A stretch of 64,000 nt of DNA from Bacteroidales bacterium (GCA_003560165.1 PWJC01000070.1:594-64593); one strand, 5' to 3'; shown: positions 3,853 to 29,125, counted from the first letter of the stretch. Made by a program: numbers and translations. Notes: generated by a model from the letters alone, not told the origin.

Positions 3853-4040
3853 GAAGGTAGAAGGTAAAGGTAGAAGGTAGAAGGTAGAAGGTAGAAGGTA
3901 GAAGGTAGAAGATAGAAAGTAGAAATCAAAAAGCCAATAGCCCAAAGCCAAAAGCCAAAAGCCAACAGCCAATAGCCAAAAGCCAAAAGCCAACAACCAA
4001 AATCTACCTTCCAATTTCTATCCTCTAATTTCTTTTTTCT
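3853..4040. repeat. Composite heptamer tandem-repeat mosaic (GAAGGTA array / GCCAAAA array / inverted TCTACCT-type arm)
   Basis: 7 perfect plus 3 variant GAAGGTA units (3853-3921). Ten 7-nt GCCAAAA-type units (3933-4002). Five TCTAnnT heptamers (4003-4040) that are an imperfect reverse complement of block 1. Confidence 0.9.
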
Positions 4041-4079
4041 GACGTTTTAACCATATTACAACCATAAAACCATAAACGG

Positions 4080-4253
4080 ATGAAAAACGATTCGCACGCA
4101 AGCAATGCCGTATACGGCCTCGGCTTTATCGGCGCAGCCATTTATTTTATTTCCGGGGCCACCGGGATCTGGACCGGTGTGCTCGGTCTGCTAAAAGCCA
4201 TTGTCTGGCCGGCCATCCTGGTTTTCGGAGCTCTGAGCCGGCTTGGGTTATGA
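4080..4253 (+). CDS. Hypothetical 57-aa two-TM membrane protein, translationally coupled to the sulfurtransferase
   Basis: ATG 4080 to TGA 4251-4253 translates to MKNDSHASNAVYGLGFIGAAIYFISGATGIWTGVLGLLKAIVWPAILVFGALSRLGL. It is below the track's length cutoff. Its stop overlaps the next start (ATGA at 4250-4253). Confidence 0.45.
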   Translation: MKNDSHASNAVYGLGFIGAAIYFISGATGIWTGVLGLLKAIVWPAILVFGALSRLGL

Positions 4254-5101
4254 AGAGTGGTTCCCACCTCATCCAGGCCAGGGAACTGGTCAGGCTGGCC
4301 GAAGGCGGGCATGATTTCGTACTCATTGATGCAAGGGCAGGGCAGGATGCCAGGGAAAGGTACCGGGCAGGCCACCTGAGAGGTGCCCTGCATGTACACC
4401 TGGAAGAAGAACTGTCGGACATCCATGAAGACCTCAGGAAGGGAGGGCGGCACCCCCTGCCCTCACCGCAACGTTTTTCTGTGTTTCTGGGTCGCCTGGG
4501 CATTGGTCCGGGCAGCCACGTCGTGGTATGCGACGACCAGGGCGGGGCCAACGCTGCAGCGAGGTTCTGGTGGATGTTAAAGGCCATGGGACACGAAAAG
4601 GTGCAGTTGCTGGACGGGGGGATGCAGTCGGCTCTGAGGTCCGGATACCCCCCGGAGTCCGGAGAAGGAAGCACCGAACCAATGCCGCCTTATTCCGGGA
4701 AGGACTGGGAGCTGCCCACCGCCGGCATGGAAGAGGTGGCCCGTGCCGCTGCACATCCTGATTACCTGGTAGTGGATGTCAGGGGGGAAGCACGCTACCT
4801 GGGCATTGAAGAGCCCATCGATACCATTGCAGGGCATATCCCGGGAGCTGTGAATATGCCTTACGAAAACAACCTGGACGATGACGGATTGTTCCTGCCC
4901 CCGTCCCGACTGCATGAAATGTACAGCAAACTGACAGGCGGCCGGCCGGCATCACAGGTCATCCTGCATTGCGGCTCGGGGGTCACCGCTTGCCACAGCG
5001 CCCTGGCCATGGCTGCTGCGGGTTGGGAAATCCCCCCTGTCTATACCGGTTCGTGGAGCGAATGGTCGAGAAACGGCCGGGCTGTTGCAAGGGAAGTATA
5101 G
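4250..5101 (+). CDS. sseA: Two-domain rhodanese, 3-mercaptopyruvate/thiosulfate sulfurtransferase
   Basis: Tandem rhodanese architecture. Active-site loop HCGSGVTACH matches the CG[ST]GVT loop typical of 3-mercaptopyruvate sulfurtransferases. Confidence 0.8.
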   Translation: MKSGSHLIQARELVRLAEGGHDFVLIDARAGQDARERYRAGHLRGALHVHLEEELSDIHEDLRKGGRHPLPSPQRFSVFLGRLGIGPGSHVVVCDDQGGANAAARFWWMLKAMGHEKVQLLDGGMQSALRSGYPPESGEGSTEPMPPYSGKDWELPTAGMEEVARAAAHPDYLVVDVRGEARYLGIEEPIDTIAGHIPGAVNMPYENNLDDDGLFLPPSRLHEMYSKLTGGRPASQVILHCGSGVTACHSALAMAAAGWEIPPVYTGSWSEWSRNGRAVAREV

Positions 5102-5114
5102 GCTCACAGCCATT

Positions 5115-5411
5115 CTATAAATCTTTTGCGATCAACGCCTTGAGCTGGCTGGGAATGTCGTCGGCATCGGGCTCGGGCTTGATCATCTCCGATATGTCGA
5201 TGGGCCGGTTCACATCGAGCTGCCTGATCTCTTTGAACACGGCAATGTGGTCGAAGGGAATTTCCTCTTCGGCCTCCTCGTTCATTACAGGCATGAAGAG
5301 CGTTCGTCCGAGGGCGTCCCTGAAAGTCAGGGTTCTTTTGTTTTCATCTGCCTGTGCAGAGGCAATGGACAGGGCAAAAATGGCGGCGAAAAGAATGGTT
5401 TTAAATTTCAT
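5115..5411 (-). CDS. Hypothetical small secreted acidic protein
   Basis: MKFKTILFAAIFALSIASAQA signal peptide followed by an acidic mature part. No family recognised. Confidence 0.45.
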   Translation of the reverse strand: MKFKTILFAAIFALSIASAQADENKRTLTFRDALGRTLFMPVMNEEAEEEIPFDHIAVFKEIRQLDVNRPIDISEMIKPEPDADDIPSQLKALIAKDL

Positions 5412-5738
5412 GGCGTTTGGTTTTTTATGTTGTTAAGTTAGTGTTCTACTCATGTAGTACACTAATTTTGTGCCACAAATTGTATTTTATTGGTTTTGTG
5501 ATGTTTGCAAGTTTACTCTTTTTGTTTTGGGTGATTTCTTGGTGAAAATCCATTGGAAAATTGTCCGGCATTGTTACATGATTGAACGAAAACGGACACC
5601 ATGCCCTTTCGTACAAGGATTTGGATTATTGAATAATAATCATTAGATTCGTCTATGTAAATGCCACAGATATTTTTTCTGCTAAAGCCCTGAAGCGGTT
5701 TCAGGAACAAATCATTGTTAAACCAATACACGAGAAAA

Positions 5739-6269
5739 ATGAAGCACGTGAGACGACTCTTACTGGCAGTATGTACATTAGTCATCTTGGGCATACCCGC
5801 CCAAAAAACGCATGCCCGGCAAACCTCGCCCGGCGAAGGCCAGCTCGCAATCAGTGCCGGGCTGTCCTACGGATTCGATATCGAAGAAATCGGGCTCCGG
5901 GCCGGGGCCACTTACTTCCTTGGCGAAGAAATGCGCATTGGCGGCGACCTCACCTACTGGCTAGTCGACACCCAACCAGGGGTCTCGGCCACCTATCTGG
6001 AGTTCAATGCGAACTTCCATTACATCTTTTTCAGCGAAAACGCCCTGATGATCTATGGGGTGGGCGCCCTGGGCCTTCACTATGCCAGCGTGTCGGTCGA
6101 TATCCCCGGAGTGGGTACCGTTTCAGATTCGGACAGCGAGCTGGGCCTGGGCCTTGGTGCCGGCCTGGAATACAATCTGGGCGGGGTTTCCCTGTTTGCC
6201 GAACCCAAGCTGTTTCTCAGCGGCTTCGACCAGTTTAAGTTCAACTTCGGCATACGCTATTACCTCTGA
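5739..6269 (+). CDS. Small outer-membrane beta-barrel protein (OmpA/OmpW-like porin-family barrel)
   Basis: Internal ATG gives a signal peptide (MKHVRRLLLAVCTLVILGIPAQ). Alternating hydrophobic beta-strand pattern with Gly-rich turns and an aromatic C-terminus (FGIRYYL). Confidence 0.6.
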   Translation: MKHVRRLLLAVCTLVILGIPAQKTHARQTSPGEGQLAISAGLSYGFDIEEIGLRAGATYFLGEEMRIGGDLTYWLVDTQPGVSATYLEFNANFHYIFFSENALMIYGVGALGLHYASVSVDIPGVGTVSDSDSELGLGLGAGLEYNLGGVSLFAEPKLFLSGFDQFKFNFGIRYYL

Positions 6270-6315
6270 TCTGGCAAGGCCCGCCCCGATTTTACAAATC
6301 ACACCTAACCCGGCC

Positions 6316-7326
6316 ATGATGCAGGAGGCCCTTCATTATGCCATGAACAAAAAGGGGGAGGCCGAATGCCTGCTTTGCCCCCACCTTTGCCGGATGCCCC
6401 CCGGGCATACCGGCAAATGCGGGGTGCGCCGCCACATCAACGGACAACTGTTTTCACTGAATTACGGACTCATAAGCGCCCTGTGCACCGACCCCATCGA
6501 AAAAAAATCCCTTTACCATTTTTTCCCCGGCCATCAGATCCTGTCGGTGGGCAGCTTTGGATGCAACTTCCGTTGCGGCTGGTGCCAGAACGCAACCATT
6601 TCGCAATGCTGCCCCGACGATTTCGGCCGGCCGGAACCCACCCCCCCTGGGGTCCTTTTGGAATCGGCCGGAAAATCAGGGGGGATCGGACTGGCCTACA
6701 CCTATAACGAGCCCACTGTATGGTTCGAATACATGCTTGATTCGGCCCGGCAGATCAACGACAGGGGGATGAAGAACGTGGTGGTGAGCAACGGCTACAT
6801 CAACAGGGAACCTCTGGAGGAGCTGATGGAGGTGGTACATGCTTTTAATATCGACCTGAAAGCCTTCGACCGGAGTTTTTACCGCAGGGAAACCGGAGGC
6901 AAGCTACAGCCTGTGAAAGAAAGCCTGAAGGCCATTTCGCGAAAAGGCATTCACCTGGAAATCACCTACCTGGTCATTCCGGGACTGAACCACGATGCCC
7001 TGGCCTTTGAAGGGATGATTGAATGGATACAGCAAGAGTTGGGCCCGGAAACCATACTTCACCTGAGTCGTTATTTTCCGGCCCGGAAGATGCAACAGCC
7101 ACCCACCCCCGCTGAGACAATGCAGGAGCTGTACCATACCGCACGGCAGCGACTTCCCTATGTTTACCTGGGCAATATGCCCGCCAGTCAGGGAGGGACT
7201 GCCACCCGTTGTCCGGATTGCGAACAGCTGGTCATTGAACGCACCGGATACCGGGTCAGCAAATTGGGGATGGATGCATCAGGAAAGTGTACGGGCTGTT
7301 CCAAAAGTATTTGCATCATGTCATAG
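6316..7326 (+). CDS. amrS: AmmeMemoRadiSam system radical SAM enzyme
   Basis: N-terminal Cys cluster CLLCPHLC...GKCGVRR, then DPIEKKSLYHFFPG and the radical-SAM motif GCNFRCGWCQN. The track ORF from 6055 is an upstream extension overlapping the OMP gene. Confidence 0.8.
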   Translation: MMQEALHYAMNKKGEAECLLCPHLCRMPPGHTGKCGVRRHINGQLFSLNYGLISALCTDPIEKKSLYHFFPGHQILSVGSFGCNFRCGWCQNATISQCCPDDFGRPEPTPPGVLLESAGKSGGIGLAYTYNEPTVWFEYMLDSARQINDRGMKNVVVSNGYINREPLEELMEVVHAFNIDLKAFDRSFYRRETGGKLQPVKESLKAISRKGIHLEITYLVIPGLNHDALAFEGMIEWIQQELGPETILHLSRYFPARKMQQPPTPAETMQELYHTARQRLPYVYLGNMPASQGGTATRCPDCEQLVIERTGYRVSKLGMDASGKCTGCSKSICIMS

Positions 7327-7349
7327 GAAGCACCCCAAAAGCCAATCCG

Positions 7350-8201
7350 ATGGAAAACTCTTCGTCCACCAGACCCCCTGCCGTATCCGGCATGTTCTAC
7401 CCTGATTCCGGACACCGGATCAGGGAGATTTTGAACGATGCCCTGGAGCGGGAAAAGCCAGGGATCGATGCCATCCGCTTCGACGGCCACATTGCGGGTG
7501 GGGTGGTGCCTCATGCCGGCCTGGCCTATTGCGCCCCCCAGGCCGTACATTTTTTCGAACAACACCGCCGATGGGGAAGGCCTCCGGATACCGTTCTGAT
7601 CGTACACCCAAATCACGGCGGACAGGGTCCCGGGCTGTCGGTGGACGGGCACAGGCACTGGGAAACCCCTATGGGCAGCCTGGCTGTCGACATCCCTTTC
7701 ATGGAATCACTCGGCTTGCCGGTTTCGCCACGTGCCCAGGAATCCGAACACTCGGCCGAGGTCATCCTTCCCTACCTGCAGTATTTTTTCTCCTTCAACT
7801 ACCGCATCCTCGCAGTGAATATCCGGGATCAGGATGCCGCCACGGCCATCGATCTGGCCAATAAAATCCACCGGGTATCCAAACACATGAACAGGAAACT
7901 GCTCTTTATCGCATCCAGCGATTTTTCCCATTTTCTTTCTCCCGAAAGGGCCATGGAACGCGACAGCCTGGTGCTGCAAAAGATACTCAGCCGCGACACA
8001 AAGGGGGTGCACAAGGTAGTCACCGGCGAACAGATCACTGTGTGCGGCTACGGACCCATCATGGCACTCATGGAATATACCCGGCTGCTGGACCCCGGAT
8101 ACAGGGTACATGTGCTACGCAGGGGGCATTCGGGCGAGGCAAGCCCCTCCGACAGGGTGGTGAGCTATGTGTCACTGCTTTTTGAGTTCGGAAGCGACTA
8201 A
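7350..8201 (+). CDS. amrB: AmmeMemoRadiSam system protein B (MEMO1 family)
   Basis: Memo hallmarks VSGMFYP, VPHAGLAYC, EHSAEVILPYLQ, SSDFSHF, CGYGPI. Lies 23 nt after amrS. Confidence 0.8.
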   Translation: MENSSSTRPPAVSGMFYPDSGHRIREILNDALEREKPGIDAIRFDGHIAGGVVPHAGLAYCAPQAVHFFEQHRRWGRPPDTVLIVHPNHGGQGPGLSVDGHRHWETPMGSLAVDIPFMESLGLPVSPRAQESEHSAEVILPYLQYFFSFNYRILAVNIRDQDAATAIDLANKIHRVSKHMNRKLLFIASSDFSHFLSPERAMERDSLVLQKILSRDTKGVHKVVTGEQITVCGYGPIMALMEYTRLLDPGYRVHVLRRGHSGEASPSDRVVSYVSLLFEFGSD

Positions 8202-8280
8202 TACTGCCAGTTCCCTGAAAGTATTCTTACTTTTGCAGCTCCAGGCATCACTGGTTACCTGGCGATGGCCAGGACCCGGG

Positions 8281-10559: not shown

Positions 10560-10678
10560 ATGCCGATTCCCTGAATAGCAAATACAAAAAAACCAACAGC
10601 CAATGGCACGCTTTGTTCATGGCAGGAAACTGCCTGAGAGCTTGGTGGGGGTTTGAGCCGGCCATCCCATCGCAGGCA

Positions 10679-13809: not shown

Positions 13810-16554
13810 ATGGCAGTCAATAACAACGGAAACGGGAAAGAGAAAGAGAAAGAGAAAAAACAAGGACAGGAACAAGGGCAGGGCAAAAAATGGTACTCCC
13901 TGGAGGCCAGCGAAGCCCTGGAGCATTTCGACACCGACCAGGATAAGGGGCTTGACCCGGAGGAAGTCAAAAAACGGCTTGAGAAATACGGGCCCAACGA
14001 ATTGCCCAAAGGAAGAAAAAGCACTGTGCTGGAACGATTGGCACGGCAATTTAAAAACGTGCTCATCTACGTGCTGCTGGTAGCCGCCGTCATCACTGCC
14101 CTGATGGAACACTGGGTCGACACCTGGGTTATCCTGGGGGTGGTGATCATCAATGCCGTGATCGGTTTTATCCAGGAAGGAAAGGCCGAAAAGGCACTCG
14201 AAGACATCCGGGAGATGCTCTCTTTGGAAGCCGTGGTGCTGAGAAACGGGGAGAAAAAGACCATCGATGCCGAAGAACTGGTTCCCGGTGATATTGTCTT
14301 GCTCAAATCGGGCGACAAAATCCCGGCCGACCTTCGCCTGGTCAAATCCAAGGACCTGCGTACCGAGGAGGCCCCGCTTACCGGCGAATCCACCTCTGTG
14401 GACAAAAGCACCGAACCCGCCGAAGAGGATGCCGTGATCGGCGACCGCAGTTCCATGGCGTTCTCGGGCACAGTGGTCACTTACGGCAAAGCCACCGGTG
14501 TGGTGGTGGCTACCGGTTTCGACACCGAGATCGGGAAGATCAGCAAAATGATGTCGGAAGTGAAAGAGATCACCACCCCCCTGTTGCAGAAGATCGATCA
14601 TTTCGCCAAGTGGCTGGCCGTGGTCATCCTTGCAGCCAGTGGCCTGTTCTTTGCTTTCGGTTATTTTTTCAGGGATTATGAAGTGGTGGAGTTATTCATG
14701 GCGACGATCGGTCTTATTGTTGCAGCCATCCCTTCGGGCCTGCCCGCCATCATGACCATTACCCTGGCCATCGGGGTGCAGCGAATGGCCGACAGGAATG
14801 CGATCATCCGGAAGTTGCCGTCGGTCGAAACCCTCGGGGCAGTCAACGACATCTGTTCGGACAAAACGGGGACCCTCACCCGCAACGAGATGACGGCCAA
14901 AACCATCATCACCGCCGACAGGGAATACCAGGTGGAGGGCACCGGCTATAAGCCGGAGGGCAACATACTGGCAGACGACAAAGAGGTCGACCCCGAAGAA
15001 GACGAGGTGTTATGGAAACTGCTACAGACCATACGCACGAGCAACAACTCCGAGATCGGGAAGGAGGATGGCGAATGGAAACTCACCGGCACCCCCACCG
15101 AAGGGGCCCTGCTTACCCTCAGTTATAAGGCCGGATTAAAGGACTTCAAGCCCGAACGCATCGACAGCATTCCGTTCGAGTCGGATCACAAATACATGGC
15201 CACCCTCAACAAGGTGGATAATGAGGTATTTGTGTTTATGACGGGAGCACCCGAAAAGGTGCTGGAGATGTGCAGCAGGCAAATGACCCGCGACGGCGAA
15301 AAAGACCTGGACCAGGAATTCTGGGAAGAAAAGATGGAAGAGGTGGCCGCAAAGGGTCAACGCCTTCTGGCTGCCGCCTTCAGCAAAACCGGCAGCGACC
15401 GCAAAGAGATCGAAAAAGACGACTTGGAGCACAACAAGGTATTCCTGGGCATAGTGGGGATAATCGACCCTCCGCGCGACAACGTGATCGAAGCCATCAA
15501 GGAATGCAAAGAAGCCGGCATCAGGGTAAGGATGATCACCGGCGACCACGCCATCACCGCCAAAGCCATCGGCAAGGAGATCGGCATCGGCGATGGGGAA
15601 AAGGCCCTTACGGGCAAGGAGCTGGAAAATATGAACGACAGTGAGCTCAGGGAGGCTTCCGAAGAATACGATGTGTACGCCCGGACCAGCCCCGAACACA
15701 AGCTCCGCCTGGTCAAGGCCCTCCAGGCAAACAACCGCCTGTGTGCCATGACGGGCGATGGGGTCAATGATGCCCCGGCCCTTAAAAAAGCCAACATCGG
15801 CATTGCCATGGGCATCAAGGGCACGGAGGTGTCGAAAGATGCTTCCGAAATGGTGCTGGCCGACGACAACTTCGCCTCCATTGTCAATGCGGTGGAAGAA
15901 GGCAGGACGGTATACGACAACATACAGAAGGCCCTGCTGTTCATCCTGCCCACCAACGGTGCCGAGTCACTGGTGCTGATCGCCGCCATCCTGATGGGCA
16001 TCGCCATGCCCATCACCCCTTTGCAGATCCTTTGGGTCAACATGGTCACGGCGGTTACCCTGGCCGTATCCCTGTCATTCGAGCCCATGGAAGACGAAGT
16101 GATGCAACGTAGCCCCCGCGCCCCCGACAAACCCATACTCGGACCGATCTTCATCTGGCGGATCGTATTTGTGTCTATACTGGTAGGTGCCTTTACCATG
16201 ATGGCCTACCATTATGTGGCCGACATCCTCGAAATGGGGCGGGACCTGGCCCGGACGGTTGCCGTAAACACCCTGGTGGCCGGTCAGTTGTTTTACCTGT
16301 ACAATTGCCGCAAGATCAAGCAGCCAAGCTTGGGCAAGGGCTTCTTCAACAACAGGGTAGCCTTTATCGCGACCACTGCCCTGATCCTGATACAGATCTT
16401 CTTTGTGTACTCTGCCTTCATGAACACCTATTTCGATACCGAGCCCATGGAAATCAATTTCTGGCTGATCCCGCTCGGATCGGGCCTTGTCGTATTTTTC
16501 GTCGTGGAGTTGGAAAAATTCATTGCCAACAGGATTGTTGCCCGAAAAAAATAA
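13810..16554 (+). CDS. Cation-transporting P-type ATPase (type II, Ca2+/Mg2+-ATPase-like)
   Basis: TGES actuator motif, phosphorylation site CSDKTGTLT, MITGDH, hinge TGDGVNDAPALK, 10 predicted TM segments. Confidence 0.9.
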   Translation: MAVNNNGNGKEKEKEKKQGQEQGQGKKWYSLEASEALEHFDTDQDKGLDPEEVKKRLEKYGPNELPKGRKSTVLERLARQFKNVLIYVLLVAAVITALMEHWVDTWVILGVVIINAVIGFIQEGKAEKALEDIREMLSLEAVVLRNGEKKTIDAEELVPGDIVLLKSGDKIPADLRLVKSKDLRTEEAPLTGESTSVDKSTEPAEEDAVIGDRSSMAFSGTVVTYGKATGVVVATGFDTEIGKISKMMSEVKEITTPLLQKIDHFAKWLAVVILAASGLFFAFGYFFRDYEVVELFMATIGLIVAAIPSGLPAIMTITLAIGVQRMADRNAIIRKLPSVETLGAVNDICSDKTGTLTRNEMTAKTIITADREYQVEGTGYKPEGNILADDKEVDPEEDEVLWKLLQTIRTSNNSEIGKEDGEWKLTGTPTEGALLTLSYKAGLKDFKPERIDSIPFESDHKYMATLNKVDNEVFVFMTGAPEKVLEMCSRQMTRDGEKDLDQEFWEEKMEEVAAKGQRLLAAAFSKTGSDRKEIEKDDLEHNKVFLGIVGIIDPPRDNVIEAIKECKEAGIRVRMITGDHAITAKAIGKEIGIGDGEKALTGKELENMNDSELREASEEYDVYARTSPEHKLRLVKALQANNRLCAMTGDGVNDAPALKKANIGIAMGIKGTEVSKDASEMVLADDNFASIVNAVEEGRTVYDNIQKALLFILPTNGAESLVLIAAILMGIAMPITPLQILWVNMVTAVTLAVSLSFEPMEDEVMQRSPRAPDKPILGPIFIWRIVFVSILVGAFTMMAYHYVADILEMGRDLARTVAVNTLVAGQLFYLYNCRKIKQPSLGKGFFNNRVAFIATTALILIQIFFVYSAFMNTYFDTEPMEINFWLIPLGSGLVVFFVVELEKFIANRIVARKK

Positions 16555-16570: not shown

Positions 16571-16745
<175 letters not shown>

Positions 16746-16841
16746 GTTTGGGGTTTTCCAAGGTTTTAGCAATCGCACTGCCTGCGGGCAGACGCGAAAT
16801 GTCATTTCACATTAATCCTAACTGCATCAAAAAATCGTCAC

Positions 16842-17087
16842 ATGAAAATCAATATGGGAAGCACCGACAGGGTCATACGGCTGATCCTTGCGGTATTTAT
16901 TGGCATTCTTTTCGTTACCGGCATCATCGGCGGCACGTCCGGAATTGTTCTGCTGGTAGTGGCCGGCATTTTGCTCATTACCACAATTACCGGTTTCTGC
17001 GGGCTGTATCGATTGCTCGGCATCAACACCTGCCGCCTGAAGGCCGGGAAAAAGGGAAGGGGAACAGAGCAGGAGCCGGCCCCATGA
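16842..17087 (+). CDS. DUF2892 (YgaP-type) small membrane protein
   Basis: MKINMGSTDRVIRLILAVFIG...ITGFCGLYRLLGINTC is the characteristic DUF2892 pattern. Confidence 0.6.
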   Translation: MKINMGSTDRVIRLILAVFIGILFVTGIIGGTSGIVLLVVAGILLITTITGFCGLYRLLGINTCRLKAGKKGRGTEQEPAP

Positions 17088-19222: not shown

Positions 19223-19298
19223 CGCTATTTTTTTAAACAAGTGTGCAGTTTTTTTTTAATTGCGGGGGAGTGAATTTTCAATTGAAAAAAAAATCCTG

Positions 19299-19306: not shown

Positions 19307-19347
19307 GTAAGTATCCCTGTATTTTATCCACAAAACACATCCCCGAA

Positions 19348-20452: not shown

Positions 20453-20541
20453 TGCAGCTTCGGCACAGGTAAAAAAGCCGGGAGGTCCGCCCAATAAGTG
20501 GCGCTCCCTGACGGTATAAGGTCTTATAAATCCGATTTGCC

Positions 20542-21249
20542 ATGGAACAATTACTGCAATCCATCTTACCCGGCAATGGGCTGCTGCTGCTGGCACAGCT
20601 GCTGCTCGCCACTGTCCTTGGCGGCCTTGTCGGTATCGAAAGGGAAATCCACGGCCGACCTGCCGGGCTGAGGACCCACATCCTTGTCTGCCTCGGATCG
20701 GCCCTGATCATCGTTGCCTTTGAACAATTGAAGGCCGGTCTGGTTTTGGAAGGCTGGGACATCATACAAATGGACCCGGCCAGGGTGGCCGCGGGCATCA
20801 TTACCGGCATCGGCTTTCTGGGGGCCGGCACCATACTCAAAGGCAAGGACCATGTGATGGGACTGACCACCGCGGCCTCCATCTGGGTTGTTGCGGCCAT
20901 CGGCATCACCACCGGGCTGGGGCAGTTTTTTCTGGCCATCACCGCCACCATCCTGGTACTTTTTGTTTTGCTGATCCTGCAGCGGCTTGATGTCAGGACG
21001 GAGCATTACGGGGAGATCAGCCTGACGGGATACGGCGGGGAGGACTTTTTCAACAACTCGTACACCGGTCTTACCGGCATGGGATTCAGGATCAGAGGAT
21101 ACCGCATCGAATCGGCAGGGTCAGATAAAGACATCAAGGTGAGATTCCAGGTCAGGTACACAAGGGCAGCCTCCGGAGCCGACCTAATCGGAAAGCTCAT
21201 GCGAATGGACGGAGTCCGGAGCGTTTCCTGGGACAACACCCCCCCATAG
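20542..21249 (+). CDS. MgtC/SapB family protein
   Basis: LGGLVGIEREIHGRPAGLRTHILVCLGSAL and AAGIITGIGFLGAGTI are MgtC hallmarks. C-terminal ACT-like soluble domain. Confidence 0.8.
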   Translation: MEQLLQSILPGNGLLLLAQLLLATVLGGLVGIEREIHGRPAGLRTHILVCLGSALIIVAFEQLKAGLVLEGWDIIQMDPARVAAGIITGIGFLGAGTILKGKDHVMGLTTAASIWVVAAIGITTGLGQFFLAITATILVLFVLLILQRLDVRTEHYGEISLTGYGGEDFFNNSYTGLTGMGFRIRGYRIESAGSDKDIKVRFQVRYTRAASGADLIGKLMRMDGVRSVSWDNTPP

Positions 21250-21263
21250 GGATGGGTTAGCCG

Positions 21264-21381
21264 GAGTGATGAGTGATGAGTTAAACAGTTTAAAAGTTTA
21301 AACCCTTAAACTTTTAAACCCTTTCGACATTTCGACATTTCAGATTTTCCAGACTTTTCGATTTCTCGACTTTTCAGACTG
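21264..21381. repeat. Composite tandem-repeat mosaic (GAGTGAT x2, GTTTAAAA-type units, about 7 TTTCGACA-type octamers)
   Basis: GAGTGATGAGTGATGAGTTAA, AGTTTAAAAGTTTAAACCCTTAAACTTTTAAACCC, then TTTCGACA TTTCGACA TTTCAGAT TTTCCAGAC TTTTCGAT TTCTCGAC TTTTCAGAC. Starts 15 nt after the MgtC-family stop. Confidence 0.9.
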
Positions 21382-21634
21382 ATTTTCACCGATTGCCCTG
21401 CAGCGCAGGACAAGAATCCGCATCCGTGGGAACGGCGTGAAAATCAAGGCCAGTTGATTTTTTTAATCAACAAAATCAGGGCCTTTATAAACCCACTCTG
21501 GTTTTTCGTGGGGAAAACATCACCAAACCCGGCTCCGTCATCCAGCCTGACAGAACGGCACCCCGCCCGGTAAAGGACAAAACTTGTATCTTTACGCATT
21601 TTGCGAATTATTTAAAAAATAAACAGCTACCGCA

Positions 21635-22867: not shown

Positions 22868-22872
22868 GCCGC

Positions 22873-23754
22873 TTACTTTTCGATGCGGAGGAAGAGATTG
22901 ACCCCCAGGGGCTCGCTGATCACATCACTGAAGCTTTCAGGAATGCCTGCTTGCCGGGCAAAAGCCAGCAACTCTTCGGCCGATCGGTGGTAAAGGAACC
23001 AGTCGGCCAGTACTTCCATGATCTTGCGCGAGGGGCTGTTGTTGCTGAAATTGCCGATGACCATTTGCCCCCCACCGGCCAGGAAGGCATAATAATGCTT
23101 GAGCAGGTACACAAAGTGCTTGTCTTTGAAATAGTCGAACAGGCCTGCGCTCCAGATCAGGTCGTATTGCTTGTCGGGAACATAGCGGATCACATTCCTG
23201 TTGTGGAAGCTCAGGTACTCCAGGAAGTCCCTGTTTTTGTCAGTGGCATAGGCAATGGCGCGGCTGTCCATATCGATCAGGTCGAAATACAGCCGGTTTT
23301 CGCTCGTGGAGCAAAGGTACTCATAAACCTCCGTAACGGGTCCGCTGCCCAGTATCAGCACATTCCTGGCCTGCCCGCCGGCATTTTCATTCAGGCAGTG
23401 CAACAATTCAACGGCAATCTTCTTGCGGTTCACCACGGCGATGGTGGCAGGCAAACGATGGAAAAACAAATCCCATTTCTTCCATTTCGGATCGGGGCTC
23501 ACGTAGTTCTGGTACATTTTTTCAATAATGAAAAAATCACCGCTGTAACCAAAGGGTTTGTTAAAGGCAAATCCGATGTTGGTGGCCGGGTGGAGCATCG
23601 GTTTCATCGCCTCACGGTAATCATCGATCTGTTCGGGTTTGATCTGATCAACCATCTGGTGCATGAGCTCAAAATCCTCCGGGTCGGGGCCGTTTTTATC
23701 AAACAGCATTTGTGCAAACGCCTTGAGTGATGTTTCTTCTGCCAGTGTTTTCAT
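22873..23754 (-). CDS. Class I SAM-dependent methyltransferase with N-terminal extension (possible PhcB-like signal synthase)
   Basis: SAM motif I VLILGSGPVTEVYE, acidic post-I DLIDMD, motif region DLIWSAGLFDY. About 130-aa N-terminal extension containing KPFGYSGDFFIIEKMY. Last gene of the two-component operon. Confidence 0.7.
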   Translation of the reverse strand: MKTLAEETSLKAFAQMLFDKNGPDPEDFELMHQMVDQIKPEQIDDYREAMKPMLHPATNIGFAFNKPFGYSGDFFIIEKMYQNYVSPDPKWKKWDLFFHRLPATIAVVNRKKIAVELLHCLNENAGGQARNVLILGSGPVTEVYEYLCSTSENRLYFDLIDMDSRAIAYATDKNRDFLEYLSFHNRNVIRYVPDKQYDLIWSAGLFDYFKDKHFVYLLKHYYAFLAGGGQMVIGNFSNNSPSRKIMEVLADWFLYHRSAEELLAFARQAGIPESFSDVISEPLGVNLFLRIEK

Positions 23755-23787
23755 GTTATCAAATGGGGTAACGCATGTTGACCAAAG

Positions 23788-24540
23788 CTATTTATTCAGC
23801 ATCGCTTCGAGCAGATCACGATATTCCTCATCTACGGTGATGACCGTCATCTTATCGGCCATGATCAGTTCGGGGTATTTGGCAATAAACACCTTATCGA
23901 GATTGATGATATACTGGCTGCTCACCTGCACAAAGGTATCTTCGGGAAGTTTCTTTTCCACTTCGTCGAGGTTGCCCTGCACCAGCAGGCTGTCTTCGCG
24001 AAGATGTATCCTGCAGTGGTTGTCGCCTTGCTCCACATAATAGACATTGGGAAGGTTGATACGCTCCAGCCCTTTCTCCCCTTCGAGGAATACCTGGTTT
24101 TTGGCCGGGGCGCTCGGCTTGAAAAAGGTATTGTACTGGTCGCTCTCCATCCGGGTCTGGATGTCGTTCTCGAATTTGTACCTGGCAATCTCGATATTGG
24201 TTTGCAGGTCCTTTTCGGAGAACGGCTTGATAATATACCCATAGGGAAGAGATATTTTAGCCTTTTCGATGGTGGCCACATCGGCGTTTGCCGTGAGGAA
24301 GATAACGGGCACATCATGTTGTTTCCCGATGATGGTTGCTGCATCGATGCCTGTCATGTCGCCTTTCAGGATGATGTCCATCAGTATCAGGTCGGGAAGT
24401 TTCCTTTCCACCTCATCAATGGCGTCCTGGCCCGAAGCCACTGTCTTTTGCACATCATAACCCAGGCTCATCAGGCTTTCCTCGATATCGGCAGCCACCA
24501 GGAATTCGTCCTCTACAACCAGAATGCTCAGCTTGTCCAT
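23788..24540 (-). CDS. LytR/AlgR-family response regulator (REC + LytTR DNA-binding domain)
   Basis: REC: ILVVEDE...LILMDIIL...TANAD. LytTR: NHCRIHLREDSLLVQGNLDEVEKKLPEDTFVQVSSQYIINLDKV. Confidence 0.85.
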   Translation of the reverse strand: MDKLSILVVEDEFLVAADIEESLMSLGYDVQKTVASGQDAIDEVERKLPDLILMDIILKGDMTGIDAATIIGKQHDVPVIFLTANADVATIEKAKISLPYGYIIKPFSEKDLQTNIEIARYKFENDIQTRMESDQYNTFFKPSAPAKNQVFLEGEKGLERINLPNVYYVEQGDNHCRIHLREDSLLVQGNLDEVEKKLPEDTFVQVSSQYIINLDKVFIAKYPELIMADKMTVITVDEEYRDLLEAMLNK

Positions 24541-24551
24541 GTTTTTGAAAG

Positions 24552-25610
24552 TTAAATTTTAAAATAGATGTCGTACTTGGTACCCTCTGAAAAATCGTAT
24601 TCGAGTTTGCCGTCGATCTGCTGCACCAGCTTGTGCACGATGCGCATGCCCAACGACCTGGAATCTTCCACATTGAATGAATTGTCCATGCCCACCCCGT
24701 TGTCAGACACCCTCAGGGTAAACTCCTTTTTCCCGTGCCGGATCAGGCTGATTTTTATAAGGCCTCCGTTGGCATGAGAAAATGCATGCTTAAACGAATT
24801 GGATATGAGCTCGTTAATAATCAGTCCACAAGGGATGCCCGTATCCAGGGGGAGGAAGACATCCTCCACATCGTATTCAAAACGCACATTGCGCTGCTGG
24901 TCATGATAGGTGCGGGCCAGGTTTCCGGCCAGGCTTTTTACGTAATTGGAAAACTGTATATTGGCCAGGTTCTCATTCTGGTAAAGATTCTCATGGATCA
25001 ATGCCATGGAGCGGATGCGGTTCCGGCTTTCGGCAAGCACGGTGCGCAGTTTCTGATCGTCCACAAGGCGTTCCTGCATGGTGAGGATGCTGGAGATGAT
25101 CTGCATATTGTTCTTCACCCGGTGGTGCACTTCCTTGAGCAGCACCTCCTTTTCGTCCAGCGACCTTTTCAGGTTTTTTTCGGCCACCCGCCTTCTGATC
25201 TCTTTTTCGGCCAATGCCTTTTTCAGCAAAATATTCCCGGCCAGCTCATCGATCAGGGCATAGAGCTTGATCGGGTCGACCGGCTTGATCAAGTATCCGT
25301 TCACCCCCAGGTTGATGGCCTCCAGAAAGTATTCCTTGATGCTGTAGGCCGACATGACGATCACCTGCACATCGGCAGTTAGTTGCTTGATCTGCCTGAT
25401 CATTTCCAGGCCGTTCATGATGGGCATGCTGATGTCTGTGATGATCAGGTCGGGGGTGTGTTTTTGATAGATGTCGAGCCCTTCCTGACCGTTCTCTGCG
25501 ATGAAAAAAGTGGAGGTACGCCTCCTGAGCCTTTTCTCATACAAGCCACGGATGGTCTCGTTATCTTCGACGAACATCATGGAGATCTGGTGGGGAAGCT
25601 GGGTTTCCAT
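24552..25610 (-). CDS. Receiver-histidine kinase fusion (REC + HisKA_2 + HATPase_c)
   Basis: REC: MMFVEDN...LIITDISMP. HisKA_2 H-box KEVHHRVKNNMQIISSIL. N-box LIINELISNSFKHAF. G-box VSDNGVGM. Confidence 0.8.
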   Translation of the reverse strand: METQLPHQISMMFVEDNETIRGLYEKRLRRRTSTFFIAENGQEGLDIYQKHTPDLIITDISMPIMNGLEMIRQIKQLTADVQVIVMSAYSIKEYFLEAINLGVNGYLIKPVDPIKLYALIDELAGNILLKKALAEKEIRRRVAEKNLKRSLDEKEVLLKEVHHRVKNNMQIISSILTMQERLVDDQKLRTVLAESRNRIRSMALIHENLYQNENLANIQFSNYVKSLAGNLARTYHDQQRNVRFEYDVEDVFLPLDTGIPCGLIINELISNSFKHAFSHANGGLIKISLIRHGKKEFTLRVSDNGVGMDNSFNVEDSRSLGMRIVHKLVQQIDGKLEYDFSEGTKYDIYFKI

Positions 25611-25652
25611 AATCCTGGGTTTTATTCCGGCAGTGTCGGCTTACAATATACG

Positions 25653-27518
25653 TTAAATATAGGTGGCAATGATGTTGATAAAATCTTCCAGGTTAAACGG
25701 CTTGGGGATGTAGTCGTCGCATCCCGCATTGCGGCTTTTGTCGCGGTCGCCATCCATGGCATAGGAAGTCTGGGCGATGATGGGGAGCCCGGGCTGCAGT
25801 TCCTTGATCTGCCGGGTGGCTTCGTACCCATCCAATACCGGCATGCGCACATCCATCAGGATCAGGTCGACATGGGTGCCTATCCTGATCTGGTCGACCG
25901 CTTCCTGCCCGTTTTTGGCCCAGATCAGGTTGGCACCGGTTTTCTTCAGTGCTGTTTTGATCAGCAAAAAGTTCGTCGTGACATCCTCTGCCACAAGGAT
26001 CACTTTGTCACTCCAGTTTAAGTCCATATGGGAAGCATTTACGATGTAATTCCGAAAAATGGATTCTGTGCCTCTATGCAGGGGCAGGGTGAAGGTAAAT
26101 ATGGAGCCTTCGCCGGGGGTGCTTTCAAGCCAGATATCGCCTCCGAACAATTTGACAAAGGCCTTGGAAATAGCCAGCCCCAGACCGGTGCCTTCGTATT
26201 TGGGCTGATGGTCGACCGTGGCCTGCATGAAGCGGTCGAAAACCACCTCCTGCTGGTCTTCGTCCATGCCCACCCCGGTATCCTTTACATAAAACAACAG
26301 TTCTTTTTCGTGGATGGAATATCCGATCTCCACCAGCCCCCTGTTGGTAAACTTGATTGCATTGCTCAGCAGGTTGATAAACACCTGCTTGAGGCGGGTG
26401 CGATCGGACAGGATCACATCATCGGCCCCATTCAAACTGTACCTGACCTTGAGTTCAACGCGACCGTCCTGAATTTTGTTGTTATTGCGGAAGAGTTTGC
26501 ACACCTCGTCGATCAACTCATTGATGGAGAATTCGCTTTCGTTGATGGTGAGCATGCCGGCCTCGATCTTCGAGAGGTCGATGATGTCACCAATGAGCGT
26601 CAGCAGGTGGTTGCCGTTTTTATTGATGATCTCTACGTATTCTTTCAGTTCTTCATCGCTCTCGGCCTCCAGCAGCAATTGCGAGAACCCAAGTATCCCA
26701 TTCATCGGAGTCCTGATCTCATGGCTCATATTGGCCAAAAAGGCCGACTTCAGCTTGTCCGATTGCTCAGCCCTTTCCTTGGCTTCCTCAAGCTGGGAGG
26801 TGCGCTGTTTTACTTTATTTTCGAGAGTGAAGTTGGCTTCTTCCAGCTGGGCCTTGCGTTCATCGAGCTGGCTGTTCAGAAAAAAATCGCGGCGGGCAAA
26901 ATACTCGATATTATAAGCGGCGAACATCCCGATGACATTGGCGGCAACAAAGAAAAAGTTGTTGTTGATGATGAGTTCGGGCGGGGCACCGGAAAAGGCA
27001 ATGGCGCCAACATTGTACAGAATAAGAATGAACCATCCGCCAATGGTGGCGATCAGAAACCTCAGCTTGATAAAGAAATAGCCGGCAAAGAACACCAGCA
27101 TGAGCCCGCCGTAGTAGGCATAGTTCTCGGGCACCACCATCAGCATCACGCTGATGCCGGTACCCCCCAGAACGAAGGAGAGAAAAACCAGGGGCTGCCA
27201 TACCTTGGAAAAAAAGGGGAAAAATGACAGCAAAAAGGTAGCGGCGATAAATGGGATCACGATCCCGAAGCGAATGATGGTAAACAAATGCGTCAGCTCG
27301 GGCACCACAATGCTGTCGAGCAGGCCAAACACCCCATAGAGCAAACCCACCAGGAAAAAGGACACCCTGAATTGCGGCAGCGAATCGCGGTAGTATTTTT
27401 TCAGGAATGACTTTTCGCGCTCATCCCTGAATGCCAGGGTTAAGGGGTTGAGGTTCATTCGCCTGATGCCACCGGGTAATTCGTTGAATAAAGTGGTCGA
27501 TGAGTTATTCGTTGGCAT
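25653..27518 (-). CDS. Hybrid sensor histidine kinase (polytopic membrane sensor, coiled coil, HisKA, HATPase_c, C-terminal REC)
   Basis: About 6 TM N-terminal domain, H-box [37 protein letters not shown], receiver ILVAEDV...[13 protein letters not shown]. Confidence 0.85.
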
Positions 27519-27547
27519 GACAATAAGTCCTTGGTAGGATATCCACG

Positions 27548-27555
27548 CAAATTTA
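27548..27555 (-). promoter_or_regulatory. Candidate Bacteroidota -7 promoter box (TAnnTTTG)
   Basis: Minus-strand TAAATTTG, 30 nt upstream of the hybrid kinase ATG at 27518. Confidence 0.35.
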
Positions 27556-27663
27556 ATGTTTTTCCTTAACCACAGCCATTTAATCTGATGAAATTAACCG
27601 GTTATGGGGTTTTTTGAGGCAATAATCAATGTGGCCGGGTTGTCGGTCAAGGCCGAATTTTAT

Positions 27664-27671
27664 TACCTTTG
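27664..27671 (+). promoter_or_regulatory. Candidate Bacteroidota -7 promoter box (TAnnTTTG)
   Basis: TACCTTTG, 29 nt upstream of the pnuC ATG at 27700. Confidence 0.35.
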
Positions 27672-27699
27672 CGCGTTTAAAAACCCTAAACCCCTCCCC

Positions 27700-28368
27700 A
27701 TGATGCTGGCCAACTCTTTCCTGCAGCTTTTTTATGAAAACGTGATGGAAACTACCTGGCTGGAGCTGATTGCAGTGACTTTCGGCATTATGAGCGTCTG
27801 GTTCGCCAAACAGGCCAATCTCCTGGTTTACCCCACGGGGATTGTCAGCACAATCATTTATATCTATATCTGTTTCAACATCCAGCTATACGCCGACATG
27901 GGCATTAATCTCTTTTATACCAGCATGAGCGTATACGGCTGGTACGCCTGGACACGCAGAGACCATTTGAAAAGAGTCAGGCCCATCCGCTGGAATACCC
28001 GAAGGGAACAGCTTACCGGCATTGCCCTCATCCCGTTCCTGTATGTAGTCATACTGGGCCTGATTTACCTGTTCAAGCAGGACGATACCGAATACATGAA
28101 TTCCTATATCCCTTATGTAGACTCCTTCACCACCTCTGTTTTTCTGATCGCCATGTGGTATATGGCGCATAAAAAAATTGAGAACTGGATCTACTGGACG
28201 GTGGCCAACATCATATCCATTCCGTTGTATTTTGTAAAAGGCCTGGTGTTTACAAGTTTTCAGTTTTCCGTCTTCCTGGTTCTGGCCATATTGGGCTTGT
28301 TGGAATGGATCAGATTATACAACCAGGGCAGGGCAAGGGAACAAAAATTCATTGATGACCTGATCTGA
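27700..28368 (+). CDS. pnuC: Nicotinamide riboside transporter PnuC family
   Basis: WLELIAVTFGIMSVWFAKQANLLVYPTGIVS and later W-rich TM pattern typical of PnuC. ATG 27700 lies 29 nt after a TACCTTTG box, so the track start at 27604 is rejected. Confidence 0.75.
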   Translation: MMLANSFLQLFYENVMETTWLELIAVTFGIMSVWFAKQANLLVYPTGIVSTIIYIYICFNIQLYADMGINLFYTSMSVYGWYAWTRRDHLKRVRPIRWNTRREQLTGIALIPFLYVVILGLIYLFKQDDTEYMNSYIPYVDSFTTSVFLIAMWYMAHKKIENWIYWTVANIISIPLYFVKGLVFTSFQFSVFLVLAILGLLEWIRLYNQGRAREQKFIDDLI

Positions 28369-28369
28369 C

Positions 28370-28939
28370 TCAACCCGGACGGCGGTTGTACAGGTTCATC
28401 GTCCGCTCAATGCCCTGCAACCCGAAGCTGATCGCCATTTCGGCAGCCACCCCGATCCGGGGCTCAATCACCTGCATTTCCTCCTGCGTCCATTTGCCCA
28501 GCACATACTGCGACTGGTAGCCCGTGGGGTAATCGCTCCCGATGCCAAAGCGCAGACGGGCAAAGTGGTCGCTGCCGAGGGTGTCGATAATGTCGGACAG
28601 GCCATTGTGTCCGCCGGCCCCGCCACTGGCGCGTAAACGAAGCAGCCCGAGGGGAAGGGCCACATCATCGGCAACGACCAGGAGGTTTTCAAGGGGTACT
28701 TTTTCCCTGTTCAGCCAATAAAGTACCGGCCTTCCGCTGCGGTTCATATAGGTGGAGGGCTTGAGCAGGAAGAACATACGGCCCTTAAGCCTGAAAGAGG
28801 CCATATCTCCGTAGCGGGCCGGGGCAAACCCAGCTTCATGCATGCCAGCCAGGCGATCGGCTACCATAAACCCGATGTTGTGGCGGGTATTGACGTATTC
28901 GGGCCCGATATTTCCCAGTCCGGCAATCAGGTACTTCAT
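28370..28939 (-). CDS. pth: Peptidyl-tRNA hydrolase
   Basis: MKYLIAGLGNIGPEYVNTRHNIGF, GGHNGL motif, length 189 aa. Confidence 0.9.
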   Translation of the reverse strand: MKYLIAGLGNIGPEYVNTRHNIGFMVADRLAGMHEAGFAPARYGDMASFRLKGRMFFLLKPSTYMNRSGRPVLYWLNREKVPLENLLVVADDVALPLGLLRLRASGGAGGHNGLSDIIDTLGSDHFARLRFGIGSDYPTGYQSQYVLGKWTQEEMQVIEPRIGVAAEMAISFGLQGIERTMNLYNRRPG

Positions 28940-29002
28940 TTCTTATCCATTTATGTCCCGCAGGCAGCGCGGCAGGGAAAACCAGGGAAAACGTAAAAAC
29001 AG

Positions 29003-29125
29003 GTTTAAGAGTTTAAAAGTTTAAAAGTTTAAGTATTTAATAATCAACTCTTAACCACTTCAACTCTTCAACTTTCCTCTTCCTACCTACTACCTACTAC
29101 CTACTACTTACTACCTTCTGCCTCC
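29003..29125. repeat. Composite tandem-repeat mosaic (GTTTAAAA-type octamers, TTCAACTC units, CTACCTA heptamers)
   Basis: GTTTAAGA GTTTAAAA GTTTAAAA GTTTAAGT (29003-29034), TTCAACTC TTCAACTT (29059-29074), 3 perfect plus 3 variant CTACCTA units (29083-29124). Lies between the ctc terminator and the pth start. Confidence 0.9.

Follow-up and report, generated by a model that had tools for sequence, protein, structure and literature searches.

Intergenic mosaics of 7-8-nt tandem arrays in a soda-lake Bacteroidales bacterium are related copies of a multi-copy modular repeat element

What are the four clusters of very short tandem repeats that lie between the genes of an uncultured soda-lake-sediment Bacteroidales bacterium, and are they one thing or four? 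They occur in a 64,000-nucleotide stretch of its DNA (GCA_003560165.1 PWJC01000070.1:594-64593), here called the window; positions are counted on the whole of it. The original prediction, made from the sequence alone, described the four loci (L1-L4) as mosaics assembled from shared words, which belonged to no repeat family that could be named and which suggested a common generating mechanism or a common binding factor. We observed that the four loci are related copies of one multi-copy modular element. At somewhat better than even probability, we read them as a lineage-specific dispersed element of the BrickBuilt, BOX or short tandemly repeated repetitive (STRR) kind, which would grow by slippage and have structural side effects on its neighbours.

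Tandem Repeats Finder (TRF), applied to the 64 kb, placed arrays of period 7 or 8 exactly where they had been predicted and nowhere else in the window (Table 1); 17 other intergenic gaps of at least 90 nt had none. At each locus between two and four arrays of 7-8-nt units abut one another, and each of the four sites is intergenic. L1 is flanked by divergent genes, mnmA (minus strand, 2496-3710) on one side and a 57-amino-acid membrane open reading frame (ORF) with a rhodanese gene (plus strand, from 4080) on the other. L2 begins 17 nt past the stop codon of a P-type ATPase gene and ends ~100 nt ahead of a YgaP-like gene. L3 begins 15 nt past the MgtC stop codon and ends 254 nt ahead of an M19 dipeptidase gene, and L4, on the minus strand, sits after the terminator of the L25/Ctc gene, 64 nt before the start of pth. 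The avoidance of coding sequence and the placement relative to genes were as described in the prediction, with mosaic-to-start-codon distances of 40 to 254 nt. CRISPR (clustered regularly interspaced short palindromic repeat) arrays have direct repeats of ~23-50 nt, unique spacers of similar length and usually a leader and cas genes; the mosaics, with 7-8-nt units, no spacers and no cas-like domain among the window genes scanned, were rightly set apart from them.

The mosaics contain many different unit words that drift smoothly into each other. At the degenerate 3' edge of L1 module A, for example, GAAGGTA passes through GAAGATA, GAAAGTA and GAAATCA to AAAAGCC and so grades into the AAAGCCA array. 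The 5' edge of L2 module A is sharp and follows TTTATCG; at its 3' edge the units are degenerate (GAGGACG/GAAGACG).

Word sharing among the loci exceeded chance, as had been proposed. In the window the 14-mer TTAAACTTTTAAAC has five occurrences, each within L2, L3 or L4, and the 10-mer TGATGAGTGA is common to L2 and L3. The exact word GAGTGAT, said to occur in both L2 and L3, is present in L3 only; L2 has GTGATGAGTGA. Over all 7-mers the sharing is modest (46 observed, against a mean of 23.9 with a standard deviation of 6.8 in random windows). The local alignment of L2 with the reverse complement of L4, on the other hand, scored 95 over ~128 nt, where the shuffle maximum was 25. It spans the AAGTTGA and TTAAACnn modules and then runs on through non-tandem sequence (CCTGTTT..GTTTTCC..GGTTTT..CGCRCTGCCTGCGGG).

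Scanning metagenomes for TTAAACNNTTAAACNNTTAAAC recovered a fifth copy on another soda-lake contig (L175). Here a stop codon is followed, after 12 nt, by (GTAGTAG)n, (AAAGTTGA)x7, (TTAAACnn)x5, CCTGTTTGGGGTTTGCCCGGGTTTTAACTGTCGCACTGCCTGCGGGCAG and a TTTCGAC-type array. L2, L4 on its minus strand and L175 are colinear through AAGTTGA, TTAAACnn and a non-repeat core of ~50 nt (CCTGTTTGGGGTTTTCC..GGTTTTA..CGCACTGCCTGCGGGCAG). The TTTCGACn word of L3 is the one that follows the core in L175, and it is also found upstream of pth in a relative (L003). The left edges are alike too, being TTTACCGGAAG in L1, TTTATCGGAAG in L2, TTAGCCGGAG in L3 and AGCCGGAAGAC at other loci of the community. Thus, in place of the free recombination of shared words that had been envisaged, we observed a fixed, colinear and polar order, a shared core and dyad symmetry; the occurrence of words in both orientations is explained by the arm-to-arm symmetry together with the polar order of the modules.

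The core is present in many copies. Logan contigs mapped onto L2 at 80% likeness gave a k-mer depth of 675-1260 over the core and 68 over the flanking gene, which is 10-19x flank depth or ~10-19 genome equivalents in these community assemblies; the array words reached ~250-800x single-copy depth. The core is also present on four or more other contigs whose coverage, 60-78x, equals that of the host genome; these are therefore additional loci of the same genome. Loose contig ends from other loci repeat the module junctions, in which AGCCGGAAGACCGAAGACCGAATAGTGATG is joined to GTTTAA or the break falls just after AGCCAACAGCCAAAATCTAC. Searches for extra core copies in ~2 Mb of data by BLAST-short and nhmmer recovered only L2, L4 and L175.

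The proteins flanking each locus, together with the mosaics, were found in NCBI metagenome-assembled genomes (MAGs) and in JGI metagenome, ENA and Logan assemblies, which span several soda-lake samples and years; the flanking proteins were identical, and sequencing runs labelled as soda-lake or alkali-sediment metagenome contain the sequence of the window. As independent assemblies reproduce the same loci, the loci are real, and the possibility of an assembly artefact that the prediction had allowed for did not materialise. Across these assemblies the length of L1 was 146, 153 or 160 nt and that of L2 97 or 104 nt, that is, differences in 7-nt steps, whereas L3 and L4 had a fixed unit number throughout and differed by one or two single-nucleotide polymorphisms only. 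The polymorphism in unit number that had been suggested as a check is therefore seen at two of the loci and not at the other two; it is limited to long homogeneous arrays. Many short-read contigs stop within arrays. One ENA MEGAHIT contig (L001:5763-5830) runs from the window ATPase gene across the GAAGACA array into unrelated low-GC DNA; this is either a chimeric assembly through the common array or a second organism with the same array word.

That the loci are four chance microsatellites, or products of assembly, is hardly credible after these results. Heptamers are indeed the commonest class of long simple sequence repeat in prokaryotes, in the part of Mrazek 2007 that PMC4679880 relays. 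Independent slippage at four sites is excluded by the colinear modules, the core and the multi-copy depth, and both ideas are refuted by the colinear modules and core, the locus-confined 14-mer and the independent assemblies. The prediction had already set independent slippage aside, and the mosaics do form one colinear family.

Repetitive extragenic palindromic (REP) sequences and the bacterial interspersed mosaic elements (BIMEs) built from them are GC-rich imperfect palindromes of 20-40 nt with a GTAG/CGTC tag, in alternating orientation, and have a cognate REP-associated tyrosine transposase (RAYT). The mosaics have non-palindromic 7-8-nt units and the window has no RAYT, so the statement that they are not REP/BIME-style palindromes holds for the units. 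It does not hold for the arrays as wholes, as the mosaics are hairpin-prone, with dyad symmetry at the whole-array level. At every window locus the G-rich units come first and C-rich complements second. The AAGTTGA module (GTTGAAGA) is a near reverse complement of the TTAAAC module (TCTTAAAC). In L1, module C (TCTACCTTCC...) is a degenerate reverse complement of the GAAGGTA module A, with which it pairs in the predicted fold (z = -3.67) around the AAAGCCA array as a loop. L4 RNA was predicted to fold into a single end-to-end imperfect hairpin (minimum free energy -55.6 kcal/mol, z = -2.82; the centroid, -54, is almost identical). Its left edge GGAGGCAG pairs with CUGCCUGC at the 3' end of the core, so that the whole element folds as one hairpin. 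L4 alone has complementary ends, CCAGGAGGCAG matching the reverse complement of CTGCCTGCGGG at 9/11 positions. L3 contains a perfect 14-bp hairpin (21288-21319, GTTTAAAAGTTTAA / TTAAACTTTTAAAC) and the L2 core a small one (CTGCC-TGCG-GGCAG); L2 as a whole folded no better than its shuffles (z = -0.29).

No canonical intrinsic terminator (a GC-rich stem-loop with a U-tract) was found inside any mosaic, the sole one adjoining L4 (29193-29155, minus strand), and a scan showed none between stop codon and mosaic at L2 and L3. Rfam 15 gave only tRNA-Leu matches in the window. A relaxed Rfam scan of L2 returned one low-complexity match below threshold (sno_ZL63, 28.5 bits; the gathering score is 50). 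The scans gave no support for identifying the mosaics with a known RNA family or a sigma-70 promoter.

The relation of the mosaics to transcription was not uniform in the one metatranscriptome that contains the host organism, which was used as assembled contigs carrying no strand information. The L3 mosaic was not detectably transcribed: RNA depth was zero over 21186-21619, and the dipeptidase contig (42x) starts at 21629. At L1, RNA depth was zero over 3748-3840 and the contig of the downstream gene extends upstream as far as 3953, in the AAAGCCA array. At L2, the RNA depth of the ATPase gene was zero and the contig of the YgaP gene reaches back to 16699, which places the TTAAAC array and the core in its leader. 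RNA contigs at L4 cover pth to 29031 and the L25 gene down to 29090. At L1 and L2 transcription would start within the mosaics, as the RNA contigs begin inside them and the unique DNA upstream has zero depth; the start site is only bracketed, because contig ends are set by assembly-graph breaks.

Classical contingency loci have units of 1-5 nt (rarely 7 nt) in the promoter spacer or the ORF of surface genes. L1 and L2 share with such phase-variable simple sequence repeats a polymorphic unit number at long perfect arrays upstream of genes; unlike them, the mosaics are large, lie beside housekeeping genes and have most of their modules fixed. We considered whether L1 and L2 are contingency loci, in which the number of units switches or tunes the promoters of the downstream membrane protein/rhodanese and YgaP-like genes. 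The 7-nt-step length changes among samples and the downstream RNA contigs that begin inside the mosaics are in its favour, as is the promoter activity of BrickBuilt segments (PMC4596501). However, neither a motif scan nor reading of the L1 and L2 arrays revealed a Bacteroidetes-type or sigma-70-type promoter motif, the genes downstream are housekeeping-like and not of the surface or virulence kind, L3 and L4 are invariant, and the start itself is no better located than stated above. We consider this explanation very improbable.

A survey of 2.04 Mb, made up of the window, 80 Bacteroidota loci around pth (L003-L082) and 120 metagenome loci (L110-L229), extended these observations. Of 481 period-7/8 arrays, 398 (~83%) were intergenic and 83 lay in ORFs, although 86% of the DNA is ORF; arrays of periods 6, 9 and 12 were mostly coding. 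With units head to tail, up to 14 of them and mostly outside coding sequence, the period-7/8 arrays fall among long simple sequence repeats (5-11-nt class) and STRR-like sequences. They start at a median of 17 nt past the upstream stop codon, and are found in 19% of tandem, 17% of convergent and 9.5% of divergent gaps (p = 0.002). Of 156 pairs of adjacent arrays, 14% are mutually reverse-complementary with no more than one mismatch, compared to 2.3% in the null, and the same pairing without TTTAA-type units was seen in 12/77 (null 0.9%). Elsewhere than at the window loci, 79 multi-array clusters had a mean fold z of -2.29, with 40% below -2, while the mean for single arrays was -0.25. Of 84 clusters, 70 open with an array in which G>C and close with one in which C>G (70:14, p = 4e-10), an order that is invariant to reverse complementation. 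The clusters showed no AT-skew polarity (37:47); with AT skew unpolarised and the polarity being G-to-C, the idea of A-to-T structures of the bidirectional-terminator kind was rejected. Another idea, that the G-first order avoids C-rich Rho-loading RNA, was unsupported, as the sense strand of single arrays in tandem gaps is, if anything, rich in C (52:33).

Could the mosaics instead be selected cis-acting structures, REP/BIME-like RNA hairpins or DNA cruciforms that serve as terminators or attenuators, 3'-end stabilisers, insulators or translation attenuators? The main evidence for this comes from Hymenobacter. In 7/7 species of this genus the atpD-atpC spacer is an inverted pair of degenerate heptamer arrays, whose words differ by species (AGTTGTC/GACAACT, AGCTGTT/AACAGCT, AATGGTT/AACCATT). 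Each spacer is predicted to fold into one long hairpin (z from -5.0 to -10.5), the 3' arm of which ends 3-8 nt before the atpC ATG. In the alignment 93% of cells are paired and 9/19 pairs have changed on both sides; this number of compensatory pairs was reached by 1/500 shuffles, and slid controls gave at most 3. Selection can therefore preserve array-built hairpins even as the words in them change.

In the window, the position of L4 in the L25-pth spacer, where it folds end to end, and the lack of terminators between stop codon and mosaic at L2 and L3 point the same way, as do the closeness of surveyed arrays to stop codons and their depletion in divergent gaps. Canonical terminators are also fewer in gaps with arrays (16%) than in those without (26%, p = 0.005), a difference that is confounded by taxon. 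Against such a role, the window loci are not positionally conserved in related genera, L3 is not detectably transcribed and the whole of L2 does not fold beyond chance. The stems are AU-rich with a G-to-C polarity, unlike the A-to-U of bidirectional terminators, a strong canonical terminator already stands upstream of L4, and the long arrays vary in unit number among samples. We regard a selected structural role as possible, if on balance doubtful.

The vocabulary of the arrays bears on the common binding factor that had been suggested. This explanation makes the arrays binding platforms for a dedicated factor, which reads 7-8-nt words on DNA or RNA in a global regulatory network. Identical heptamer necklaces numbered 31 between unrelated loci or genomes where 3.3 were expected, a count that is partly inflated by orthologous loci in related species; the letter-shuffle null was used in place of single-linkage clustering of heptamer words, which is unreliable because chance links are common. 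The fixed module order and the precedent in the literature (PMC4679880; bioRxiv 10.1101/2022.06.06.494920) also fit. The words, however, are many and drift smoothly, the arrays are altogether absent in related genera, the distances to start codons range widely, and the window encodes no candidate protein. The window genes scanned are ordinary housekeeping genes, with no mobile-element, cas-like, RAYT or candidate repeat-binding gene among them. We found no evidence in support of a binding factor, the elements are absent from most related genera, and we consider this explanation quite improbable.

The family is restricted to its lineage. The closest Pth proteins, ~80% identical, come from Bacteroidales MAGs, and two such relatives at 78-80% Pth identity (L349 and L350) had zero arrays in 39 kb; another group of relatives (L004-L013) had one array in ~146 kb. 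The distribution is sporadic more widely, with 38/80 genome loci lacking any period-7/8 array. The position of the L25-pth mosaic is not conserved in relatives, where only unrelated arrays were seen, in L003 and L016. L003 (80% Pth identity) has a separate family, in which TAATGTGC octamer arrays occur twice (L003:2-143 and L003:6250-6284), each followed by the same unique tail of ~100 nt (GAAGGGTTTCGGAT...TTCTTTGCGGTTTTTGCGTTT.TCCTTTTGCGGCC); this is again a tandem array with a conserved non-repeat part.

Several observations lie outside this comparison. At least 119 viral or giant-virus contigs (L230-L348, IMG/VR) also bear TTAAACnn arrays; on these, periods 6, 9 and 12 are relatively more common and clusters of several arrays rare (13), and the G-to-C order, 9:3, has the same direction in too few clusters. 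Two metagenome contigs of unrelated organisms (L202, and L209:4985-5359; 44% and 28% GC) have very large mosaics of several hundred nt with the words GGGAGACT, GAAGAC, GAGTGAT/ATCACTC, CTCAACT and TTAAAC, which is the window vocabulary, G-rich first and complements second. The long AGGGTTT/CCCTAAA arrays of L130 and L174, matched by the TTAAAC pattern, are telomere-like, probably eukaryotic and outside the bacterial phenomenon.

MITEs (miniature inverted-repeat transposable elements) have terminal inverted repeats (TIRs) that match a parent insertion sequence (IS) and are flanked by target-site duplications (TSDs). In being multi-copy, non-coding, intergenic and of defined structure, the mosaics resemble a MITE of the BrickBuilt type, and our favoured reading, a dispersed lineage-specific element, would work as follows. 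The full element begins with a short left edge, (A)GCCGGA or CCAGGAGGCAG, and continues with one or more G-rich heptamer arrays (GAAGGTA, GAAGACA, GTAGTAG or GAGTGAT). An AAGTTGA-type array and its near-complement, the TTAAACnn array, come next, then the non-tandem core of ~50 nt that ends in CTGCCTGCGGG(CAG) and, optionally, a TTTCGACn array. Copies have spread to many intergenic sites, with transposition in trans or recombination as candidate routes. In place, modules would grow, shrink and degenerate by replication slippage or unequal exchange in steps of 7-8 nt (or 14 and 28 nt), and diverged edge units would seed the next array. The 7-nt-step differences, degenerate edges, 14/28-nt periods and smooth morphing of units are the signature of slippage. 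As the two halves are roughly complementary, the element is hairpin-prone as single-stranded DNA or RNA; stems of tandem units would still pair after a slip of one unit, which could explain both stem expansion and word turnover. In this genome the elements are most likely maintained as passengers at gene ends and in spacers, tolerated, selfish or neutral, a status argued from their absence in related genera, their variable transcription and their placement at tolerant gene ends. Effects on neighbours would be secondary: L1 and L2 would give the adjacent genes long structured 5' leaders, and L4 would form a hairpin between cistrons.

Several points weigh against this reading. The copy numbers derive from k-mer depth in community assemblies and not from a closed genome. 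The mosaics showed no transposase, clear TIR or TSD, and no mobile-element gene was found in the window. No empty site was recovered, nor could one be, because the databases hold no relative at 81%-100% Pth identity. Pure neutrality does not predict the G-first/C-second order (70:14) or a vocabulary common to unrelated loci. The Hymenobacter atpD-atpC hairpin, judged by its compensatory changes, is under selection, so that some array-built hairpins are functional. Taken with the polarity and the shared vocabulary, the Hymenobacter case suggests that structure, and perhaps a directional generating process, matters. An undescribed process of this kind, making or reading repeats in one direction in some Bacteroidota and other bacteria, might build register-tolerant hairpins, always with the G-arm first and the C-arm second, that are used as a general class of fast-evolving regulators between cistrons and at gene ends. 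Fold-back priming at the 3' ends of G-rich strands, or a factor that reads 7-8-nt words, would be candidates for it; the Hymenobacter hairpin would then be one fixed example and the window family a recent burst. We think this unlikely.

The coordinates of the modules are collected in Table 1.

Table 1. Modules of the four mosaics in the window, with neighbouring and comparable features
Feature	Position	Strand	Basis and remarks
L1 module A: GAAGGTA x10.4	3853..3924	+	TRF; unit number differs among assemblies
L1 module B: AAAGCCA x10.6, 28-nt higher-order period	3929..4002	+	TRF; loop of predicted L1 hairpin
L1 module C: pyrimidine-rich tail TCTACCTTCCAATTTCTATCCTCTAATTTC; period 14 at 4003-4033	4003..4040	+	TRF, fold
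L2 module A: GAAGACA x13.9	16572..16668	+	TRF; 97 or 104 nt depending on assembly
L2 modules GTGATGAGTGA and (A)AAGTTGA x2.5	16669..16702	+	Sequence, alignment
L2 TGAAAAGT x2.5 array	16683..16702	+	TRF
L2 TTAAACnn array, period 8	16705..16743	+	TRF; approximate reverse complement of AAGTTGA module
L2 non-tandem core CCTGTTTGGGGTTTTCCAAGGTTTTAGCAATCGCACTGCCTGCGGGCAG	16743..16791	+	Alignment, depth; multi-copy
L3 GAGTGAT x2.6	21264..21281	+	TRF; left edge TTAGCCGGA before array
L3 GTTTAAAn/TTAAACnn arrays	21281..21323	+	TRF
L3 TTTCGACn array, ~7 units	21322..21380	+	TRF
L3 core-like small hairpin CTGCAGCGCAGG	21398..21409	+	Resemblance to L2 and L4 core weak
L4 module A: left edge CCAGGAGGCAG, then GAAGGTA/GTAGTAG units	29083..29125	-	Alignment; array at 29083-29123 is CTACCTA on plus strand (TRF)
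L4 AAGTTGA-type array (GTTGAAGA, GTTGAAGT, GGTTAAGA, GTTGATTA)	29044..29073	-	TRF; unit on plus strand TCAACTCT
L4 TTAAACnn array	29003..29040	-	TRF; unit on plus strand GTTTAAAA
L4 core CCTGTTTTTACGTTTTCCCTGGTTTTCCCTGCCGCGCTGCCTGCGGG	28957..29003	-	Alignment, fold
Canonical intrinsic terminator of L25/Ctc gene	29155..29193	-	Terminator scan; neighbour of L4 mosaic, outside it
Hymenobacter atpD-atpC spacers	L054:1691-1786, L059:6115-6205, L061:6075-6171, L069:6047-6169, L078:5766-5871, L081:4787-4892, L082:3919-4007	-	

Among the surrounding genes is one for a CHU_C type IX secretion protein. Both L1 and L2 lie upstream of small membrane proteins tied to rhodanese-type sulfur transfer, which may be a coincidence: the 57-amino-acid ORF (4080-4253) overlaps the start of the rhodanese gene, and the YgaP-like protein (16842-17087) has a transmembrane domain. 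In the relatives L349 and L350 the M19 dipeptidase gene stands directly beside the nicotinamide mononucleotide transporter gene and pth. The window has four extra genes there (22873-27518), for a 293-amino-acid unknown protein, a LytTR response regulator and two histidine kinases. The L25-pth spacer measures 292 nt in the window (terminator and mosaic), compared to a 4-nt gene overlap in L349 and 90 nt in L350. Two repeats of the window are coding. The C-terminal tail of L25/Ctc, rich in Glu, Gly and Ala, is encoded by in-frame 9-, 15- or 21-nt GAAGAAGGN repeats (29301-29342, in the minus-strand gene 29232-29903); these are common to the whole group (also upstream of pth in L003-L013) and distinct from the mosaics, though of GAAGG-type words. 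A GAAAGA x3.7 hexamer repeat (13836-13857) lies in frame at the 5' end of the P-type ATPase gene.

For an old and unexplained class of repeats, these data offer testable regularities, namely inverted abutting arrays, hairpin-prone clusters, the 70:14 order, a dispersed modular family with a core in one species and, in one genus, the atp-operon hairpin with its compensatory changes. In practical terms, short-read metagenome assemblies break at the mosaics and can be joined chimerically through them (as in L001), their lengths are strain-level markers, and they can place long structured leaders or spacers beside housekeeping genes.

Bacterial repeats dominated by heptamers have been noted since 1990 (STRR) and 2007 (long simple sequence repeats), with no accepted explanation. 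STRR sequences proper have units such as CCCCAGT, TTGGTCA and CAACAGT and occur in heterocystous cyanobacteria; the mosaics do not match them, having GAAGGTA, GAAGACA, AAAGCCA, TTAAACnn and other units in a Bacteroidales host. Contrary to the original prediction the family can be related to prior art, that is, to long simple sequence repeats, STRR, the Bacteroidetes heptamer assemblages (PMC4679880) and the Porphyromonas MITEs (PMC4596501). MacGregor 2015 (PMC4679880) reported on TAACTGA repeats, noted 'larger assemblages of heptamer repeats' between the genes of Gramella, Aequorivita and Elizabethkingia, as well as contigs ending there, and proposed binding platforms or a regulatory network for the TAACTGA repeats. 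The same paper relays from Mrazek 2007 the sporadic distribution of the heptamer class, and a Nostoc preprint credits heptamer repeats with regulatory effects. The mosaics share with STRR, long simple sequence repeats and these assemblages the intergenic tandem heptamers, many per genome, with several unit types adjoining, and likewise the 7-nt strain differences, the sporadic occurrence including some Bacteroidetes and the breaks in short-read contigs. They differ from STRR and the assemblages in their words, and their arrays show no concentration immediately before start codons. Fixed module order, a non-repeat core, inverted-array symmetry and G-then-C polarity have no report in the accessible STRR and heptamer literature. 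In a search that mostly did not cover subscription literature we found no account of arrays built as inverted pairs, of G preceding C in array order or, for Bacteroidales, of a modular family that has a core, so that an earlier description is possible.

Among the nearest counterparts by organisation are the BrickBuilt and MITEPgRS/464 elements of Porphyromonas gingivalis; BrickBuilt has a leader, a tandem array, a tail and small inverted ends in 19 intergenic copies (PMC4596501). Like these, the mosaics have a Bacteroidales host, are always intergenic, number ~10-20 copies per genome and are built as leader, spacerless array and tail, the ends being inverted over a short length; many copies are partial, few hosts carry the elements and there is evidence of transcripts that start inside them. 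BrickBuilt contains a single array, with units of 23 nt (or 41 nt), and TIRs of the IS5 type, whereas the mosaics have several abutting 7-8-nt arrays with complementary arms, no recognisable IS-type TIR or TSD, and no sequence similarity to it. BOX and REP modules are 35-60 nt long and are not similar in sequence to the mosaics either. With BOX (PMC3049150), which is also close in design, and with BIMEs the mosaics have in common a modular make-up with variable module number, strong structure, a place at gene ends and in operon spacers, and restriction to a species or genus. The pneumococcal BOX elements have been judged parasitic (PMC3049150), and the mosaics are read in the same way, with side effects on co-transcribed genes. 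The mosaics are, in sum, a poorly described variant of known bacterial intergenic repeats and not a new system.

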